From the UHGV virus genome UHGV-1063980: a stretch of DNA of 34,182 bases. One strand, written 5' to 3'. The notes beneath the pieces were generated by a model. The model did no database searches. It was not told the DNA's origin and worked only from the letters and a program-made list of their open reading frames with translations. Shown one piece after another: positions 4,233 through 21,179 of the stretch. The position numbers were made by a program, and so were the translations under genes. This DNA is from a virus. Numbering within the stretch: the first letter of the stretch is position 1; every line of letters starts with the position of its first letter.

Positions 4233-4988
4233 ATGATCAGAATTTACCTATTCACCTATGCCGGCGACGCCGATGAAGCTCTCGTATGCGTCCGGTGCGC
4301 TGCAGCGGCCCTCCCCGAAGCCGTCATCACGGTGGTGGACGATGAATCCAGTCCCATTGCTGAACGCGCCAGAACCGCCCTTGTTGAAGCCGGGGCCCGG
4401 TATTGTCAAACCAGCTGGCCAAGGAACGGCAACCTGCGCGGGCCGGACTGCGTCCGTGGCATCATTTCCACGCTGGCCCGTGGAGCGAGAGACCACGACA
4501 TTATTGTCAAAATCGACTCCGACACGCTCCTGTTGTCGGGGGACTGGGTTCGCGACATGAGATACACCGGGCTGGTGTTTCATGCCTCAGGCTACCAGGT
4601 CCCCAGCCATCCTTCCGAACGCTCCGCCTATGGTCCGTGTTACGCCATCAGCGGCTGGGCGGCCAGACTGGCGGCGGAGGAATTGGAACAGGCTGACCTT
4701 CCTCCGCTCGCACCGGAAGACCTCACCATCTGCCGGGCGGTTCAGAATCACTTTCCCGCCGAGCGGATCCGACTTGATGAACCCTGGACGCCCTTTTACC
4801 GGGAAGGGAAATGGACGGCCTGGAACTGGTTCAGCATCGCCGTGACTCCGCAGAAATACGCGGATTTCTGGATGGTTACCTTCGGCAACCCGCGTCCCAC
4901 GAACATCCCGAAATCCGAGCGGGCCCGCGCGATGGACGCCTTGTTCCGCTGCCGTTTCCCGCAGAACGAAGACGGATCATGTTGTTGA
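4233..4988 (+). CDS. Putative GT-A fold glycosyltransferase-like protein (lysogenic conversion candidate)
   Basis: N-terminal beta-strand MIRIYLFTYAG, then VITVVDDESSP (DxD-like), RNGNLRG and KIDSDTLLL. These match the order and spacing of GT2/GT-A motifs. It sits immediately beside the integrase 3' end. Confidence 0.4.
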   Translation: MIRIYLFTYAGDADEALVCVRCAAAALPEAVITVVDDESSPIAERARTALVEAGARYCQTSWPRNGNLRGPDCVRGIISTLARGARDHDIIVKIDSDTLLLSGDWVRDMRYTGLVFHASGYQVPSHPSERSAYGPCYAISGWAARLAAEELEQADLPPLAPEDLTICRAVQNHFPAERIRLDEPWTPFYREGKWTAWNWFSIAVTPQKYADFWMVTFGNPRPTNIPKSERARAMDALFRCRFPQNEDGSCC

Positions 4989-5004
4989 CGTCAACAACAT
5001 GATC
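4975..5004. terminator. Perfect 30-bp palindrome GATCATGTTGTTGACGTCAACAACATGATC between convergent genes
   Basis: Exact reverse-complement symmetry. It overlaps the TGA stop at 4986-4988 of the + gene and lies 17 nt from the 3' end of the integrase. Most likely a bidirectional terminator hairpin; a recombinase core site is the alternative. Confidence 0.5.
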
Positions 5005-5020
5005 AGGGCGGGGAAGGAGG

Positions 5021-6208
5021 CTAACGGGCCACGCCGGCGGCTATCTTGCTCATGGCCGCCTGGACGTCCGCAGAATCCGGACGGAAATAGACCCGTTCAA
5101 TCTCTTCGGAGTCGTGCCCGACGATGAAGCGGCATAAATCCGGGGACACCCCGGCCAGGCGCAGGACGGTCACGGCGGTCGCCCGTAGGCTGTGGAAGCT
5201 CTTTTCCGAAAGCCGGTGCCGGTCGCCTCTCACTTCCCCGGGCATCTCTCGGATGATTCCGTACGTTTTCAATAGCGTCGTGAACTCCGTGGAAAGCTTG
5301 TCGGAACGTCCTCCCGCATGTGCATGGCGAAGCGCGGCCAGGGGAAACACGTAATCGTTCACCCGGTTGAGCAGACGCCTTTCCAGAACCTCTTTCAAGG
5401 GCTGGATGATCGGCTTGTTCATGCGGCGCCGGCTTTTCTGCGTGGTCATGAACAGGAAGGAGTTCTTCAGGTCAATCTGGTCCCATTTCAGCGTCGCCAG
5501 GTCTCCGAGGCGCTGGCCTCCGGTATAGAGGCACACCCTCACCAGATCCGGCCATTCATCCGGGAACCGTTCAATGATGGTATTCACTTCCTCCATGGTG
5601 AAGGCGCCGCGCAGCTGCTTTTCCGCCTGGTGTTCCGCCCGGGAAGGCATGACGCCCCGGAACGGATTCCGGGAAAGGATCTCCCGGTCTACAGCGATAT
5701 TGAACGCGGTGGAGAGCGTGGACACATAGCGGATGACGGTTCCGGCGGAAACGCGCTCCAATTCCGTTTCTACAAAATCCTTCGCCATCCCTTTATTCAG
5801 GCCGGACAGCGGCATATTCCGCCGATCACCGAGGAACGCCAGAAGCCGGCGGACGGCCATGCCGTCCCGCTCATAGGCCCGCTTCTTGTTTTTCCTCCCG
5901 TCCAGCCAGTCAAAAAGGAACCGCGTCACCGTCATGCCGTTCATGGTGGCTTTCAGCACGCCGGCCTGGTCCCCGGCAATGGCCTTCACCTTGTCCAGGT
6001 CGAAAACCCCGTACCGGGCTTCTTTCTCCATCTCCTGGGCCACCAGCCGCGCCCGTGCTTCATTCTGGGACATGACCGATTTTTTATTGGCTCCCGGAAG
6101 AAGCGCCTTGGGAACCACGTCGATGCCGGTGGTCTTCCGAAGCTCTTTGCCGTCCAGGGAGCGGAAGACGGCCACCCATTTGTTGTTGCGTTTGATGATG
6201 CCTGCCAT
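5021..6208 (-). CDS. int: Tyrosine site-specific recombinase (phage integrase)
   Basis: Catalytic residues are in canonical order: R in TGGQRLGDLATLKW, HxxR in FHSLRATAVT, and H...Y in GHDSEEIERVYFRP. An N-terminal SAM-like domain is present. Length is 395 aa. Confidence 0.9.
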   Translation of the reverse strand: MAGIIKRNNKWVAVFRSLDGKELRKTTGIDVVPKALLPGANKKSVMSQNEARARLVAQEMEKEARYGVFDLDKVKAIAGDQAGVLKATMNGMTVTRFLFDWLDGRKNKKRAYERDGMAVRRLLAFLGDRRNMPLSGLNKGMAKDFVETELERVSAGTVIRYVSTLSTAFNIAVDREILSRNPFRGVMPSRAEHQAEKQLRGAFTMEEVNTIIERFPDEWPDLVRVCLYTGGQRLGDLATLKWDQIDLKNSFLFMTTQKSRRRMNKPIIQPLKEVLERRLLNRVNDYVFPLAALRHAHAGGRSDKLSTEFTTLLKTYGIIREMPGEVRGDRHRLSEKSFHSLRATAVTVLRLAGVSPDLCRFIVGHDSEEIERVYFRPDSADVQAAMSKIAAGVAR

Positions 6209-6495: not shown

Positions 6496-6530
6496 ACATA
6501 AAAACCGCCCGCGTCTCCCGACGCAGGCGG
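6496..6530 (-). terminator. Rho-independent terminator for the minus-strand PanA/PanT operon
   Basis: GC-rich hairpin CCGCCCGCGTC-TCCC-GACGCAGGCGG (11-bp stem, one mismatch). On the minus strand it is followed by TTTTTATGTG. It lies about 95 nt downstream of the operon's last stop. Confidence 0.55.
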
Positions 6531-6624
6531 AAAAAGAATGAATAGAAAGGATCCTTATTCAGGAAAGCACTTTTATATCACATTCTCATCGTTTTTCAAT
6601 CATTTTGACAGGATTTCCTAGAGA

Positions 6625-6954
6625 TTAAACATATTTTTGAACTGATTTTACCATGTACCCAACGAGGGTTGATAAAAATCCAGTAGTCATGATGTACCGT
6701 TTCTCTTCTACAATCCAGCACCATTTTTCAGGGAGAACGTAATTTAAAGTAAGCGTCGCCAATGCTACTATGCAACAAATAACAGCGGTAACCAGCACCC
6801 ATTTCCAAGCCTGATGCACAGTATGCTTTTTCTCTTTTTCCAAAGCTACTTCATCTCTTTTAGTTTCCTCTTCTATTTTTTCTATTGTCGGCACAGGCGG
6901 AGCCTTGTCCGAATTTACCAAGGCTTTGATCTGGTCATCTAGTTTGGTAGTCAT
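6625..6954 (-). CDS. Small membrane protein (109 aa), candidate toxin (PanT-like) partner of the upstream Panacea protein
   Basis: Central TM helix WKWVLVTAVICCIVALATLTLNYVL, with a possible second helix IMTTGFLSTLVGYMV. It is 4 nt downstream of the Panacea gene on the same strand. AT-rich. Confidence 0.55.
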   Translation of the reverse strand: MTTKLDDQIKALVNSDKAPPVPTIEKIEEETKRDEVALEKEKKHTVHQAWKWVLVTAVICCIVALATLTLNYVLPEKWCWIVEEKRYIMTTGFLSTLVGYMVKSVQKYV

Positions 6955-6958
6955 TTTT

Positions 6959-7435
6959 TCAAGAAGCAGAGGGGGTCAGCATTCGGTCAAAATAAATAGC
7001 CATTTGCCAGAGGGGGATACGCGAATACTTTTTTTTCTCCCAAGCAGCAGCCCAAGGGGAGTTTGGTTGGTGAGAAAGTTCCACTAACTGGGGAGCACTC
7101 AATTTCCCAAGCTTGTCTACAACATTTTTGATTACATTTTTAGCGTCTTCATCGTCTGTAATCGCGTCAGGAGATGCTAAAAATCCGGTGATTGGGGTAT
7201 CTCCCAAATGTTTCAGTTTTTTATAAAGTTCAGGAATGACGGGGCCATAAGTCCATGCTTGGATTTCTTCTGTAAATAGAGGGTGTTCTAATTGTTTCAG
7301 GGCGAATCCCTGCACGAAATAAGCCAGCTTCTGAATTTTCATGTTAGTTACAGATAAGCCTTGCTGCCAAGCTTCGGTTAATATCTGGTTGGCTATTGCC
7401 TCGATGCTATAGGATTTATATTCTATTTTGCACAT
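6959..7435 (-). CDS. Panacea domain (DUF4065, GepA-type phage-associated protein) antitoxin-like protein
   Basis: MKIQKLAYFVQGFALKQLEHPLFTEEIQAWTYGPVIPELY matches the DUF4065 core (KLqKLlYfaqgw.L...g.pLf.e.feAW.yGPV.p..Y). The C-terminal LSHQPNSPWAAAW matches the lsH...pW motif. Confidence 0.75.
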   Translation of the reverse strand: MCKIEYKSYSIEAIANQILTEAWQQGLSVTNMKIQKLAYFVQGFALKQLEHPLFTEEIQAWTYGPVIPELYKKLKHLGDTPITGFLASPDAITDDEDAKNVIKNVVDKLGKLSAPQLVELSHQPNSPWAAAWEKKKYSRIPLWQMAIYFDRMLTPSAS

Positions 7436-7555
7436 GTCTCAAGGGGCTGGGATGAACCTATAATATCATTGGACCAATAAGCAAGACAAACGTTTCATTA
7501 GCCTGCATAGGAGTTCCTGCATACACAACTGGCATCTTTCAATGATTTCATGGAA

Positions 7556-7595
7556 TGTCATGACTTGTCATCCTCTGAACGCGAAAGTCATGACA
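7556..7595. promoter_or_regulatory. Two palindromic GTCATGAC boxes 30 bp apart upstream of the PanA operon; a third copy, TGTCATGACA, at 6466-6475
   Basis: TGTCATGAC at 7556-7564 and GTCATGACA at 7587-7595, centre-to-centre 30 bp. The identical 10-bp palindrome TGTCATGACA occurs at 6466-6475 in the int upstream region. Confidence 0.45.
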
Positions 7596-7661
7596 AATCG
7601 TCTTAACGGAGCCACAAGGCTTCAAATCTCATGAAAAAACAGGAAATATTACCCCCCCCCC

Positions 7662-7672
7662 CGCATTATAAC
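7662..7672. repeat. Poly-C homopolymer tract (11 C) in the intergenic region
   Basis: ACCCCCCCCCCCGC read directly. It lies between the PanA operon promoter region and the + strand small ORF at 7728. Confidence 0.8.
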
Positions 7673-7727
7673 ACACTAAATATTAGTGTATTAGGAGATA
7701 AATTTTCAGCAAGAAAGGGTTACGTCT

Positions 7728-7874
7728 ATGTCGGGTAACGTGATGCTTGTGTTTTTCTTGCTGGCTGTGCTGTTCGGGTTCGTTTGTTTCGGCCTTGGTA
7801 TTGTAGAGGGTTGCCGGAGAACCACGAAGAGGATCTTGGAGAATATAGCAAAAGGAATGAAGAAGGGGGAATAG
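7728..7874 (+). CDS. Small hydrophobic peptide (48 aa, single TM helix)
   Basis: MSGNVMLVFFLLAVLFGFVCFGLGIVEGCRRTTKRILENIAKGMKKGE. AAAGGG lies 9 nt upstream of the ATG. A hairpin terminator follows immediately. Confidence 0.4.
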   Translation: MSGNVMLVFFLLAVLFGFVCFGLGIVEGCRRTTKRILENIAKGMKKGE

Positions 7875-7901
7875 ATTATTCCCCCGTTTCCTTTTGGAAA
7901 C
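7865..7901 (+). terminator. Tandem hairpins after the small ORF: GGGGGAATA-gat-TATTCCCCC then GTTTCC-TTTT-GGAAAC
   Basis: 9-bp perfect stem overlapping the TAG stop, followed by a T-rich run and a second 6-bp palindrome. Sits between a + gene and the 3' end of the minus-strand repressor gene. Confidence 0.5.
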
Positions 7902-7992
7902 GAGGACTTGCCCTGAGTGCTACTACCTCAATTAAATCCAAGTTATGAAGACAATACTCCTATACCTCCACACAACCCACTATGAGAGCACC

Positions 7993-8400
7993 TTAGTCCG
8001 TGTTTCGTGTTTTGCGTGGAGAACGGGAGCTCTGTACTCCTGCTTTATGAGCTTCCTGAACGGCCCATTTTGCAATTCCGTCTGCCGTAGGTTCAAATCC
8101 GTTTTGCGCAGCCCAAGCAGCAAATTGTCCGTAGGTTTCAGCATCCAGTTTCAGAACAAGGTCCAAGGCGCCTTTGCATTCACCCGTAACATCGGGAGAG
8201 GAAGGCTCCATCAGTTTTTTTATCAGCTCCGCCTTGGCAGGAGGAATTACCCCGGCTTTCTTCATCCAGTCGTCCACCGTACCCTTTTCAACAAAGAGCT
8301 GCTTTGCTAGCCAGAATCGATCTCTACCATTGTCTTTGAGCCAGCATTTTACAGATTCCTTGAAATCTTCCATGGCCTCAAGATAGAGATTTTTCACCAT
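7993..8400 (-). CDS. HTH DNA-binding regulator, candidate prophage repressor
   Basis: RFWLAKQLFVEKGTVDDWMKKAGVIPPAKAELIKKL resembles an XRE/Cro-C1 type helix-turn-helix. Divergent from the early + strand genes, with operator-like repeats in the shared intergenic region. Confidence 0.55.
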   Translation of the reverse strand: MVKNLYLEAMEDFKESVKCWLKDNGRDRFWLAKQLFVEKGTVDDWMKKAGVIPPAKAELIKKLMEPSSPDVTGECKGALDLVLKLDAETYGQFAAWAAQNGFEPTADGIAKWAVQEAHKAGVQSSRSPRKTRNTD

Positions 8401-8426
8401 TCTGCAAGATTAAAAATCAAGACATA

Positions 8427-8500
8427 GCGAAAATGCACCATTTTTTTGGTTGACGAATAGTGAAAATCCGCTAAATATATACATGTCAACCAGCGAAAAA
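8427..8500. promoter_or_regulatory. Three direct repeats AG(C/T)GAAAA(T/A) at 33-bp spacing, plus a TTGACG...TAAATA promoter-like element
   Basis: GCGAAAAT at 8427-8434, GTGAAAAT at 8460-8467, GCGAAAAA at 8493-8500. TTGACG at 8450-8455 is followed about 17 nt later by TAAATA. The region lies between the divergent repressor gene and the + early genes. Confidence 0.4.
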
Positions 8501-8514
8501 CCCCCATTATAACC

Positions 8515-8691
8515 ATGATCGAAATCAAAATCCCCATCGAAAAAATTGCCGCAGACAAAGCGGCAAGTAAAGCACTCATCCAAGAGTGCGTTGAATCCGG
8601 AAAGGCTCCGGAAGAAGCCTTCCTTGCCATTCTCAAGAGGCGCGGTCTTCCCCCAACCCAGAAAAAGAACCCCGAAACCGCCAACCGATAA
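8515..8691 (+). CDS. Small protein (58 aa), first gene of the rightward early transcript; Cro-like by position only
   Basis: ATG 8515 to TAA 8689-8691: MIEIKIPIEKIAADKAASKALIQECVESGKAPEEAFLAILKRRGLPPTQKKNPETANR. Below the 60-aa cutoff of the ORF track. Confidence 0.3.
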   Translation: MIEIKIPIEKIAADKAASKALIQECVESGKAPEEAFLAILKRRGLPPTQKKNPETANR

Positions 8692-8702
8692 ATATGGATT
8701 AC

Positions 8703-9188
8703 TTAGCTCAGCAAGTGGGGATTCTTTTTGAGATACTCCCAGGCAACATCGGTGATGTTGACGTCAAACCCGGTCACAATGCTTCCATAAAAGGAGAGCC
8801 GAATAAGAATGCCGGCTGCTATCAGACCATTTACGATGCCGTCCCTATCATCAAATCTCTGTGTGCGGGTATCGAAGAAGATATATCTGAGAAGAACATC
8901 TTTCTCTTTTGGAGTGAGAGCATGGAGACGCTTGATCACCTTTTTACGGGATTTTGCCTCGGCGTAAGAGGATTTGATTATATTCCAAACCCTTTCCAGC
9001 AGGGCGCATCCGGAAAAAAGGAATACGTACCCCGCAATATTGCGGTAATCATGATCCGCATAGCTGATATGCAGGGCCTCAAGAAGGCTTTGAGGAGCGA
9101 AAAGATAAACTGCCGCTGCGGAAAAGATTATGCCTGCATAATTGCAAGCGAATTTAAGCAGTTCTGCCAAGTATTGGAAAAAAACCAT
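8703..9188 (-). CDS. Membrane protein, SieB-like superinfection exclusion candidate
   Basis: Two N-terminal hydrophobic helices (AGIIFSAAAVYLFAP, YVFLFSGCALL). Then HALTPKEKDVLLRYIF...DDRDGIVNGLIAAGILIRL, which resembles the LTP.EK.VLREF...GIL pattern I recall for SieB-family proteins. The fully overlapping + strand ORF 8694..9203 is the alternative. Confidence 0.4.
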   Translation of the reverse strand: MVFFQYLAELLKFACNYAGIIFSAAAVYLFAPQSLLEALHISYADHDYRNIAGYVFLFSGCALLERVWNIIKSSYAEAKSRKKVIKRLHALTPKEKDVLLRYIFFDTRTQRFDDRDGIVNGLIAAGILIRLSFYGSIVTGFDVNITDVAWEYLKKNPHLLS

Positions 9189-9256
9189 AAACCCAGAGGA
9201 TAGGCTTAAACGGATGTATAGGCAACAGCTTTTACATTAAACCAATAAGAAAAAAC

Positions 9257-10048
9257 ATGAACAACAACATAGTACCATTCAACAATGCCGCGCTTGGCTG
9301 TTCTATCCGGACAGTCATCATCAACGAAGAACCGTGGTTCGTCGCGAAAGATGTTTGCGATGCACTTGAAATTGGACGTCATCAAGACAGTACTCGCTAT
9401 CTTGATGACGATGAAAAGGGGGTGTTTACTAAACACACCCTTGGAGGTCCCCAGCAAGTATCAATCATCAATGAATCCGGGCTCTACTCTCTGATTCTCC
9501 GCTCCCGCAAGCCGGAGGCGAAGAAGTTCAAGAAGTGGGTAACTGAAGAAGTCCTCCCGACGATACGCAAACACGGCATCTACGCCACAGGCGAGAAACT
9601 TCTTGAACTGATTTCCAAGCCGGAGAACGCACTTAAAGTTTTCCAAGCTCTCAAAGATGAACAGGACAAGAGGAAGTCTCTTGAAGCGAAGATAGAAGAG
9701 GACGCGCCCTACACGGAATTCGGAAAGAGCGTGGAAGTTTCCGAAGGCTGCATGCTGATAGGAGAATTCGCCAAGGTCCTTGCGCAGAACGGAAGGGAAA
9801 TCGGACAGAACCGCCTTTTTGAGCTGCTTCGAAATGAAGGCATCCTCGGGAAGGTTGGAAATCGCCGCAACGTCCCGTCACAGGAACATGTGGAAGCCGG
9901 TCGTTTCCGTCTCAATTACCGGATTATCCAACATGCGAGCGGAAGAGTGGAAAGTAAAGCAACTCCGTATCTGACGCCGAAGGGTCAAGTATGGCTTTTG
10001 AAGCGGATGACGGGGAATAAAACCGAGCAGAAGGAGGCGAAGAAGTGA
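9257..10048 (+). CDS. Phage antirepressor, Bro-N domain plus KilA-C/ORF6C-type C-terminal domain
   Basis: The N-terminus (VRTVIINEEPWFVAKDVCDALEI ... DDDEKG ... IINESGLYSLILRSRKPEAKKFKKWVTEEVLPTIRKHG) is a textbook Bro-N domain. The C-terminal half (GEFAKVLAQNGREIGQNRLFELLRNEGIL) is antirepressor-like. Confidence 0.85.
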   Translation: MNNNIVPFNNAALGCSIRTVIINEEPWFVAKDVCDALEIGRHQDSTRYLDDDEKGVFTKHTLGGPQQVSIINESGLYSLILRSRKPEAKKFKKWVTEEVLPTIRKHGIYATGEKLLELISKPENALKVFQALKDEQDKRKSLEAKIEEDAPYTEFGKSVEVSEGCMLIGEFAKVLAQNGREIGQNRLFELLRNEGILGKVGNRRNVPSQEHVEAGRFRLNYRIIQHASGRVESKATPYLTPKGQVWLLKRMTGNKTEQKEAKK

Positions 10049-19697: not shown

Positions 19698-21179
19698 ATG
19701 ACGATATGTAATCAATCGCAGGGTGGTGAAACGGTATCACGCGGGGTTCCTGTCCCCGAGTCGAAAGTCCAACTCTTTCCCCTGCAACCACCATTTTTCT
19801 TTTGTTTCCGGCTCAGGTTCAACGCATTAAAAAATATTCTCAACGCTCCGAAGCTGGTCGCCCAACAGGAGACCAGAATCAAGGAGCTGGAGACAGACCT
19901 CGCCCGGAGAGCCCTGACGGAACAAAGCCGGCAGCCCAACCGTCCCCAATGGTACGAGTACTGGGACCCGCTGCAGGGTGCCGACTTGAGCACTCTTGTG
20001 GAGGCCAGGAATGAAGCCAGGCGGGGAGCCTTTGCCCGGCAAATGCTGATCTGGGATGAAATCATTTATTCGGACGGCCTTCTGGGCATGCTCTACTCCC
20101 GCTTGATCGAAAGCGTCGCCATGCAGGGCTGGAAGATTGACGCCGCGGACGACAGCCCGGAGGCCCAGCGACAGAAAAACGCCCTGGAAGAATTCTACCA
20201 CTCTGTCAACGGGTTGCAGCAATCTTTTGGACAGCTGGCTTCCGCTATGTTTTATGGATACGCGCACCTCCAATACATCGAGGATTCCTGGGGCCGCCGC
20301 TTTGAATTCATCCCACAGCGCTATTGGGTGCGGCCGGGAGTGTTGAATGAGTGGCAGTTCAACCCACAGTGCTATATCGGCGTCGACACCGGGGAGAGCG
20401 TGGAAGACGAAACGCTCGTCGTGATGGAACACCAGTATCCCATCCTGTTCCCGGCAGCCCGCGCCTCCTTTGAGCGCAACCACGCAAAGATAACGTGGGA
20501 CAACCACATGGACCGCTACGGAAGCGCCCCGGTCATCATCACCGCCCCAAAGGACGCGAGCGCCGCCGTCATGGACGCGCTGGAACGGGCCTGCGAACAG
20601 CTTAAATCAGGCGCCTCCATCGTGCTGCCTCCTGACTGCAAAGCGGAACCGCTCAAGGCGTCCAACATCAACGAAAACTATTTTCTCTCGCGCATCAATA
20701 TGGCCGACAAAGACCAGGTGCGTTTTGTGATGGCCGGAACCCTGACCGTCCTGAACGAATCAGGATCCGGCACGCTGGCCGGGTCCGCCCATACGGACAG
20801 CTGGAATGCGGTGGTCTCCGCCGTCTGCTCCAAAGTGGCGGAAGCGTTCAACACCGCCATCAGCCCGCTTATATTGGGAGACGGCGAACCGCTGGCCCGC
20901 CTCCACATCACCTTTGACACCGTCCAGACGCCCCTGCAAAAGGCCGAGGAAATCGCCGCCCTTGCGGACGGAGGCGTCCGTCCGGAGAAAACCGAAATCG
21001 AAGAAAAGATCGGCATGTCGATCGAGGACTCGAGGGAACCCGTGTCGGCGACGTCGGCAACCAACAGGGAGTCGGGAGCCTCCCTCATTCCGACCGACGC
21101 CTACGAACAGCTGCAGCAGATGATTTACGCCGGCCTCATGAAAGGATTTACCGATGATCAGTTCCAGACAAATAAATGA
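19698..21179 (+). CDS. Portal protein, Mu gp29-like (DUF935)
   Basis: LSTLVEARNEARRGAFARQMLIWDEIIYSDGLLGMLYSRLIESVAMQGWKI aligns by eye with the DUF935 N-terminal consensus. The size (about 490 aa) and position after terL fit. The first ~50 codons look non-protein-like, so the true start may be internal. Confidence 0.7.
   Translation: MTICNQSQGGETVSRGVPVPESKVQLFPLQPPFFFCFRLRFNALKNILNAPKLVAQQETRIKELETDLARRALTEQSRQPNRPQWYEYWDPLQGADLSTLVEARNEARRGAFARQMLIWDEIIYSDGLLGMLYSRLIESVAMQGWKIDAADDSPEAQRQKNALEEFYHSVNGLQQSFGQLASAMFYGYAHLQYIEDSWGRRFEFIPQRYWVRPGVLNEWQFNPQCYIGVDTGESVEDETLVVMEHQYPILFPAARASFERNHAKITWDNHMDRYGSAPVIITAPKDASAAVMDALERACEQLKSGASIVLPPDCKAEPLKASNINENYFLSRINMADKDQVRFVMAGTLTVLNESGSGTLAGSAHTDSWNAVVSAVCSKVAEAFNTAISPLILGDGEPLARLHITFDTVQTPLQKAEEIAALADGGVRPEKTEIEEKIGMSIEDSREPVSATSATNRESGASLIPTDAYEQLQQMIYAGLMKGFTDDQFQTNK

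Follow-up and report, generated by a model that had tools for sequence, protein, structure and literature searches.

In the virus genome UHGV-1063980, a stretch of 34,182 nucleotides analyzed at its full length (hereafter the window), two adjacent minus-strand genes encode a 158-aa Panacea (DUF4065) protein, PanA, and a 109-aa membrane protein, whose gene we refer to as panT-like. It is probable, in our assessment, that the pair constitutes a type II PanAT toxin–antitoxin (TA) module with a membrane-depolarizing toxin, carried as a cargo or 'moron' in the lysogeny region of a prophage. An initial annotation made from the letters alone had proposed a candidate TA or abortive-infection pair at this position, and its open reading frame (ORF) limits, the shared strand, the 4-nt gap and the 109-aa transmembrane (TM) protein all proved exact (7435..6959 and 6954..6625).

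PanA is a stand-alone Panacea protein encoded directly upstream of a small membrane protein

The assignment of the first gene to Panacea/DUF4065 was borne out by a hidden Markov model (HMM) search: its product matches PF13274 (SocA_Panacea, Pfam) over profile positions 1-112 of 113, with E = 1.7e-18 and 68 bits, the cut-off being 25.7, and phrog_1281 (PHROGs) with E = 8e-40. The NCBIfam model SocA_antitoxin gives 116.7 bits (E = 8.5e-34), well under its equivalog cut-off of 190; the protein is, by its sequence, a SocA homolog and not a SocA equivalog. PADLOC-DB v2 returns only a weak DarG match (E = 0.0037, 14.8 bits), and a search of the PDB found no relative of either PanA or the 109-aa protein. 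Homologs of PanA fall into 33 clusters at E ≤ 1e-10. In all 20 PanA proteins that are paired with the small-protein family, the residues Y63, G64-P65-V66, H122, P127 and W128 are invariant. We take Y63 and H122 (window numbering) to be the probable counterparts of Y56 and H120 in Bartonella PanA, where Y56A or H120E abolishes neutralization (PMC10440598).

PanAT systems were defined by Kurata et al. 2022 as adjacent genes on one strand and at most 100 nt apart, and three membrane-acting PanTs have been validated, including those from E. coli (T3) and Bartonella apis (T12) (PMC8832971). The pair in the window displays the PF13274 domain, the common strand, the antitoxin gene in first position, a 4-nt gap and a reciprocal linkage between the two families. 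The TGA of panA and the ATG of the 109-aa ORF, both on the minus strand, are separated only by AAAA. Co-translation is probable because this gap leaves no separate ribosome-binding site, and because the two genes overlap by 8 nt in sister loci.

The shared Panacea/SocA domain also raises the possibility of a type VI system like Caulobacter crescentus SocAB, in which PanA would serve as a proteolytic adaptor between the membrane protein and a protease such as ClpXP. SocA is a ClpXP adaptor, and SocB is a soluble toxin that binds the DnaN sliding clamp and blocks replication. The homology to SocA, after which the Pfam family is named, speaks for such an arrangement. However, the partner here is a T12-type membrane protein and not SocB, which forms cluster T10 (PMC8832971), and the SocA equivalog cut-off is missed by a wide margin. 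The PanAT pairs tested so far form complexes and are classed as type II (PMC8832971), and mutations in the Panacea-core interface of a T12 member abolish neutralization, which fits direct binding (PMC10440598). An adaptor role for PanA is thus distinctly unlikely, and we return to direct neutralization by a type II antitoxin.

Profile searches place the 109-aa protein within the T12/PanT_D11 family

Residues 1-50 of the 109-aa protein are rich in K, E and D, with KKHTVH at residues 42-47, and precede a predicted TM helix with Kyte-Doolittle means over 19 residues of 1.5-2.55 for segments starting at residues 45-58. The AlphaFold2 (AF2) model, with a predicted local distance difference test (pLDDT) value of 63, places helices at residues 4-13, 24-73 and 83-108, the last one being a second, weaker hydrophobic helix. 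A charged N-terminus with C-terminal membrane segment(s) is the architecture of T12/PanT_D11 toxins, and it is the architecture found here.

None of the curated models in Pfam, NCBIfam, PHROGs or PADLOC is matched above its cut-off by the 109-aa protein. A match to CrgA (23.7 bits against a cut-off of 24.8) is shared by one of 36 family members and was discarded as spurious. A profile built from 13 Akkermansia-clade sequences was searched exhaustively against 1.84 billion cluster representatives and gave 184 matches at E ≤ 0.001, each representing a 50%-identity cluster. All but one of the 150 matches listed are 75-147 aa long. The exception, P0052 (1690 aa, matched in 16 stretches), proved to be the translation of a tandem DNA repeat and was rejected as a false positive. 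The family, in broad terms one of 100-145-aa membrane proteins, shares a charged N-terminus in which K(K/R)HxVH is frequent, then a TM helix, an H-x3-P-x4-W-L loop and a C-terminal helix that often carries FSGxxG. A relaxed form of the loop signature, [HN]-x3-[PGS]-x4-W-[LIFV], is present in 130 of 146 sequences, and a given Pfam model matches at most one of 36 members. The Akkermansia clade forms a divergent branch with N-x3-P-x4-W-I, which in the window protein reads N71-x3-P75-x4-W80-I81, and a C-terminal TTGFLSxLVGYMxKSVQKY.

The connection to published toxins is provided by Aggregatibacter phage S1249, whose proteins YP_003344834/35 are listed in Dataset S1 as a PanA/T12 pair with a -14 nt overlap and the mark 'notest' (PMC8832971). 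In the S1249 genome, D11S_2261 and D11S_2262 overlap by exactly 14 nt, and D11S_2262 matches the family profile over its full length with 78 bits (E = 5e-26). With a profile made from distant members only, and thus free of Akkermansia sequences, D11S_2262 scores 76 bits and the window protein 60.3 bits, while 2000 segment-preserving shuffles of the window protein reach at most 18.4 bits. Because both proteins score high on this profile, we assign the 109-aa protein, on profile similarity, to the T12/PanT_D11 family as a divergent member. The earlier view that it belongs to no known family therefore holds for the curated HMM libraries, but not in the wider sense, the protein sharing a homologous family with T12/PanT_D11 (60 bits against 18.4 for shuffles).

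The designation as an uncharacterized PanAT-type pair likewise holds in part. PanAT-type prophage cargo is supported by the domain, the gene order, the gap, the recurrence of the pair and its presence or absence as a unit. The kind itself is already characterized, because a T12 member has been shown experimentally to act on the membrane and to be countered by its PanA: the Bartonella T12 PanT depolarizes and permeabilizes E. coli membranes, and its cognate PanA neutralizes it (PMC8832971). In Bartonella PanT_D11:PanA, the stand-alone Panacea neutralizes directly, contacting the N-terminal region of the toxin and a short helix that precedes the TM segment (PMC10440598). The portions of PMC8832971 and PMC10440598 covered here contain no Akkermansia pair.

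Among known systems, the window pair most resembles in layout that of Bartonella choladocola/apis, with a stand-alone Panacea gene first and then a toxin of about 110 aa with a charged N-terminus and C-terminal membrane segment(s). It differs by its setting in a prophage of Verrucomicrobiota and by the N-x3-P-x4-W-I loop and the distinctive C-terminus of the Akkermansia clade. The S1249 pair is likewise carried by a temperate phage, has a toxin of the same family and sits in the early/lysogeny arm, flanked by cI and the integrase gene; its host is however gammaproteobacterial, and the toxin similarity is visible only at the profile level. The validated pore-former of E. coli STEC O31 (T3), compared by description, also combines a charged N-terminus and a C-terminal TM segment with an upstream PanA. 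T3 and T12 are possibly homologous according to the authors (PMC8832971). The spread of T3 over Flavobacteriia, Chitinophagia, Alpha- and Gammaproteobacteria resembles that of the window toxin's family. When all complete E. coli genomes were searched by blastn for the T3 pair, using four pairs from Gammaproteobacteria as queries, no match was obtained, which is uninformative. Identity of the family with NetFlax D5, the group of the Gordonia phage Kita toxin RmrT, was considered and rejected: the seven Kita ORFs scanned near the integrase and immunity repressor genes (KU963257, genes 39 and 41-46) are dissimilar, with scores that are all negative.

Reciprocal linkage, natural knock-outs and partner exchange

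A word-indexed search with the small protein retrieved five clusters only, all of Akkermansia type, and a Panacea gene lies directly upstream at each of the genomic places examined. A. muciniphila CP027005 and several prophages from metagenomes carry the two genes with an 8-nt overlap, behind a Peptidase_S24 CI-type repressor gene. Where PanA has dropped to 66% and 59% identity, the next gene still encodes a homolog of the small protein, of 112 or 104 aa and 29-31% identical to that of the window; these pairs occupy another site, with HTH regulator genes on one side and the lysis/terminase genes on the other. The intergenic distance in sister loci ranges from an 8-nt overlap to a 22-nt gap. 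Toxin and antitoxin identities in three comparisons are 89 and 95%, about 62-66 and 79-81%, and about 30 and 59-66%. The toxin evolves faster than its antitoxin, as is typical of TA pairs.

Outside the Akkermansia clade, tblastn detected family members in Halomonas phage vB_HmeY_H4907, with an annotated DUF4065 gene upstream and an integrase gene after the pair, and in 14 temperate phages of P. aeruginosa. The PanA ORF was inspected in one of these 14 records, MK510977, the other 13 being matched via the small protein. In MK510977 (Pseudomonas phage vB_Pae_CF183a, locus L019, 1996-2469), an unannotated 157-aa Panacea ORF overlaps the toxin gene by 14 nt, and the toxin is called a hypothetical protein. 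An alignment search of species-representative genomes with the Akkermansia clade found no related loci.

To survey the linkage from the toxin side, 185,579 species genomes were scanned with a degenerate DNA pattern for the signature of the small protein only, containing no PanA information. A first version of the pattern recovered one true member in viral contigs, and a revised version worked in genome contigs. The scan gave 72 matches, 47 of which are family members by HMM, from Bacteroidota, Alpha-, Beta- and Gammaproteobacteria, Planctomycetota and Verrucomicrobiota. A PanA ORF lies immediately upstream on the same strand for 42 of the 45 assessable members (two more have no upstream sequence), and the estimated gaps between the two genes cluster from about -40 to +28 nt. 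The two-gene unit thus recurs with different flanks in Akkermansia prophages, Halomonas and Pseudomonas phages, Aggregatibacter phage S1249 and 42 genomes of several phyla. That a PanA gene merely happens to lie beside an unrelated small ORF, an idea with the small size of the ORF as its sole argument, has a next to negligible probability in view of this linkage and of the conservation of the ORF, which is kept at 29-89% identity with an intact frame at the loci examined.

The three members lacking an upstream PanA gene in the scan are a 65-aa stump, a 61-aa stump by IS66-type genes and one full-length protein. The 61-aa stump is encoded at 3-185 of a Rhodobacteraceae metagenome-assembled genome (MAG) contig (SLBI01000064, locus L044), directly beside the IS66-type ORFs, and the insertion sequence appears to have taken the 5' part of the gene together with the PanA gene. 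The full-length protein (1804-2157 of the Saprospiraceae MAG contig JAHDFQ010000135, locus L039) is the sole complete member found without an upstream PanA; a divergent GNAT-like gene lies about 270 nt away. This copy may be silent, neutralized in trans or nontoxic.

A decayed cassette is present in a related Akkermansia prophage (IMGVR_UViG_3300029573_000021, IMG/VR, 35.6 kb; locus L017, 2923-3250). A 65-nt deletion corresponding to window positions 6727-6791 removes most of the TM codons of the toxin gene and shifts the frame; it lies between imperfect direct repeats at window positions 6715-6730 and 6792-6807. Homology to panA ends at window position 7032, so that about 25 C-terminal codons are left, and the region upstream is replaced. 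The variant protein (P0005) occurs on four contigs and is listed from three sources. Family genes without PanA are thus broken in three of four cases (L017, L044 and L091), a suggestive pattern that would be expected if the intact gene were harmful alone.

Strict genomic linkage proves a partnership and not toxicity, and the small protein could be a nontoxic effector or anchor, acting for instance in superinfection exclusion or signaling, with PanA as its cytoplasmic partner or sensor. The full-length orphan L039 is in line with this, as is a SieB exclusion gene 1.3 kb away from the pair, which marks a region that collects membrane functions expressed in the lysogen. Some predicted PanTs are, moreover, nontoxic or not neutralized in E. 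coli (PMC8832971). Weighing against a harmless partner are the direct demonstration that a member of the same cluster is toxic and pore-forming (PMC8832971) and the truncation or frameshift of the PanA-less genes. Altogether we regard a non-TA function as unlikely and favor a toxin held in check by PanA.

The partner of PanA is not always of this family. At 4555-5292 of loci L012/L013, a PanA at 49% identity is followed by a 245-aa protein with multiple TM segments that is not detectably a family member, which we read as a partner swap, of the kind described for Panacea, inside a clade of fairly close PanA proteins.

Limits and regulatory elements of the cassette

Comparison with Akkermansia phage DTMo-2021a (locus L001) delimits the insert. 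By blastn, window positions 6500-6601 correspond to 1323-1424 of DTMo-2021a at 94% identity and positions 7552-7838 to 1442-1729 at 97%; between these flanks DTMo-2021a has just 17 nt in place of the 950-nt insert, which ends 23 nt past the panT-like stop codon. By this comparison, panA and the panT-like gene form one compact unit, present or absent together between related phages. The coordinates of the cassette and of its elements are collected in Table 1.

Table 1. Positions of the panA/panT-like cassette and associated sequence elements in the window
Feature	Position	Strand	Description or basis
Whole 950-bp cassette (promoter region, panA and panT-like gene)	6602..7551	-	Insertion/deletion relative to a related phage
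panA	6959..7435	-	158-aa stand-alone Panacea (DUF4065) protein; no N-terminal helix-turn-helix (HTH), PAD1 or ZBD domain
panT-like gene	6625..6954	-	109-aa membrane protein, predicted T12/PanT_D11-type family
TM1 codons (predicted helix, residues ~51-73)	6736..6804	-	Kyte-Doolittle hydropathy
Promoter-like site TTGTCT-18 nt-TATTAT	7489..7460	-	Consensus scan; 24 nt upstream of the panA ATG
Candidate operator, 11-bp dyad ATTGGTCCAAT	7478..7468	.	Between the promoter hexamers; from sequence
Intrinsic terminator-like hairpin	6530..6505	-	95 nt past the panT-like stop; 11-bp stem with 9 GC pairs, T (U) run
Perfect 11-nt inverted repeat with a GTCATGAC palindrome in each arm	7556-7566 and 7585-7595		Overlapping a promoter-like site at 7571..7542

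Although their flanks differ, the cassettes of L002 and L005 share with the window a conserved stretch of about 75 nt ahead of panA. At the position of the dyad, L002 and L005 carry ATTAGTCTAAT, a symmetric double change that preserves the palindrome, and in L009 a different 9-bp inverted repeat flanks the -10 hexamer TACAAT. A 5+5 palindrome is by itself not significant. Together with these variants, the dyad suggests operator control, on a thin basis.

The initial annotation had credited the pair with its own palindromic operators and terminator. Both elements are real, but they belong to the phage backbone and not to the cassette, because they lie within the 94-97% identical sequence shared with DTMo-2021a, which has no pair. 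The terminator hairpin, which appears in the minimum free energy fold (z = -2.95), is found in DTMo-2021a as well, and the same holds for the GTCATGAC inverted repeat, which looks like an operator element of the backbone. Ownership of either element by the pair was rejected on these grounds. The cassette probably uses the backbone terminator.

The AT-rich island in which the pair had been placed is only partly specific to it. The GC fraction of the cassette is indeed 0.41, while the integrase gene has 0.60 and the late region 0.59, but GC is low throughout the early region, from about 6500 to 9500.

Prophage setting

Part of the evidence for the host comes from the early region, which shares 95% DNA identity with portions of DTMo-2021a, and homologs of window proteins are assigned to Akkermansia muciniphila by their sources. 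On sequence grounds we take the window to be an Akkermansia prophage.

The statement that the pair stands next to the repressor applies loosely. The closest minus-strand gene upstream of panA (8400..7993) is about 560 nt away and encodes a 135-aa protein with no family match and no S24 domain, of which only residues 15-64 (50 residues) resemble, at 54% identity, the N-terminal region of the Peptidase_S24 CI-type repressor of A. muciniphila CP027005. It may be a non-cleavable repressor or a regulator. In sister prophages, a full S24 repressor gene comes immediately before the pair.

Further upstream, at 8703-9188 on the minus strand, lies the gene of a 161-aa SieB homolog (PF14163, E = 4.6e-19), which DTMo-2021a has as well, at about 95% DNA identity. 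It adds another lysogen-expressed membrane function to the region of the cassette. Divergent from the block of SieB and regulator genes is a Bro-N/KilAC (ANT) antirepressor-type gene at 9257-10048 (+). A run of 11 C at 7653-7663 (12 C in DTMo-2021a) is intergenic, upstream of a 48-aa hydrophobic ORF at 7728-7874 (+), and could be a slippage-prone tract or a difference in sequencing length. On the other side of the cassette, the tyrosine integrase gene (5021-6208, minus strand) is inverted relative to the shared backbone and has 66-77% DNA identity with DTMo-2021a, which indicates a swapped integration module. The GC-rich late region contains a tRNA-Arg gene (anticodon CCT) at 19717-19790 (+).

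Gene order in some relatives bears on a possible role in lysis timing, with the small protein as a holin- or antiholin-like protein regulated by PanA. In L009, L011 and L012, genes for an amidase or peptidase endolysin and the terminase come just after the pair, with HTH regulator genes on the other side in L009 and L011. A weak Phage_holin_3_6 match (E = 0.003), found for one of 36 family members, points the same way; it is below the cut-off, which no holin family reaches, and the holin identity was rejected. In these loci, the pair is set apart from the lysis genes by an HTH_17 gene in opposite orientation or by a gap of about 350 nt, and in the window and in L002-L007 the pair is situated in the lysogeny region, far from the lysis genes. 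An integrase-like ORF was found in one of the 42 paired genomic loci, using a crude profile that is too insensitive to gauge the share of prophages. A function in lysis is accordingly very improbable.

Proposed mode of action

Taking the pair as a type II module with a membrane-depolarizing toxin, we propose the following scheme. Both genes would be transcribed in the lysogen from the cassette promoter, constitutively, and their translation would probably be coupled. PanA would bind the cytoplasmic N-terminal region of the toxin and the helix preceding the TM segment (KKHxVH) through the Panacea core, including Y63 and H122. Free toxin would insert into the cytoplasmic membrane via its C-terminal half and oligomerize, and the resulting pores would collapse the membrane potential. 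Loss or inactivation of PanA would then free the toxin, and the cell would be killed or arrested; this step and constitutive transcription are the least certain ones. Possible triggers are loss of the prophage or a signal that comes with a superinfecting phage, if Panacea is a sensor as proposed by Ernits et al. 2023 (PMC10440598). Prophage addiction, abortive infection or both would follow.

A defense role is made plausible by the site in the lysogeny region, by the SieB homolog and by the precedent of Gordonia phage Kita, where the toxin of the RosmerTA system (RmrT_D5/RmrA_D25) depolarizes and permeabilizes the membrane and protects against some phages (PMC10440598). Like the window pair, RosmerTA is a two-gene prophage module, located in the immunity region of Kita, but its antitoxin is an ImmA-type protease and not a Panacea protein. 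In a version dedicated to abortive infection, the stand-alone Panacea would sense a component of a superinfecting Akkermansia phage and release the pore-former, and the PanA-PanT complex would repress its own promoter via the dyad even though PanA has no recognized DNA-binding domain. We consider this version possible but rather doubtful.

Several points weigh against the type II toxin assignment or limit its reach. Toxicity, neutralization and complex formation are what we infer for this particular pair, and the evidence does not separate addiction from phage defense. The window protein is divergent, with N for the near-universal H and I for the L that follows W. Its link to the S1249 toxin is transitive, via the profile: pairwise BLASTP between the window toxin and the S1249 T12 protein gives nothing, and a profile restricted to Akkermansia sequences scores the S1249 protein at just 20.8 bits. 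The further step to the validated Bartonella toxin rests on the cluster to which the authors assigned the S1249 protein. The AF2 model of the toxin is of low confidence, and the number of membrane passes is tentative. The full-length L039 gene without a PanA gene implies that toxicity is not absolute, or that neutralization can occur in trans. Finally, the lack of a DNA-binding domain in PanA leaves the promoter dyad without an assigned binder.

Implications for Akkermansia prophages and for annotation

The cassette opens no new mechanism, and the by-products of the analysis serve mainly annotation: the loop signature, the linkage statistics, the examples of co-decay and the unannotated PanA genes. 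Located between the TM segment and the C-terminal helix, the H-x3-P-x4-W-L signature defines a large toxin family that is missing from curated libraries; with it, annotation pipelines could give a name to thousands of proteins now called hypothetical and would also bring out unannotated PanA genes such as those in P. aeruginosa phages. A. muciniphila counts among the candidates for next-generation probiotics, and the benefit that its prophages bring to the lysogen is almost unexplored. The cassette and the nearby SieB gene mark the integrase-proximal early region as a slot for membrane-acting cargo expressed in the lysogen, with possible consequences for the stability of prophages, for strain engineering and for susceptibility to phages.

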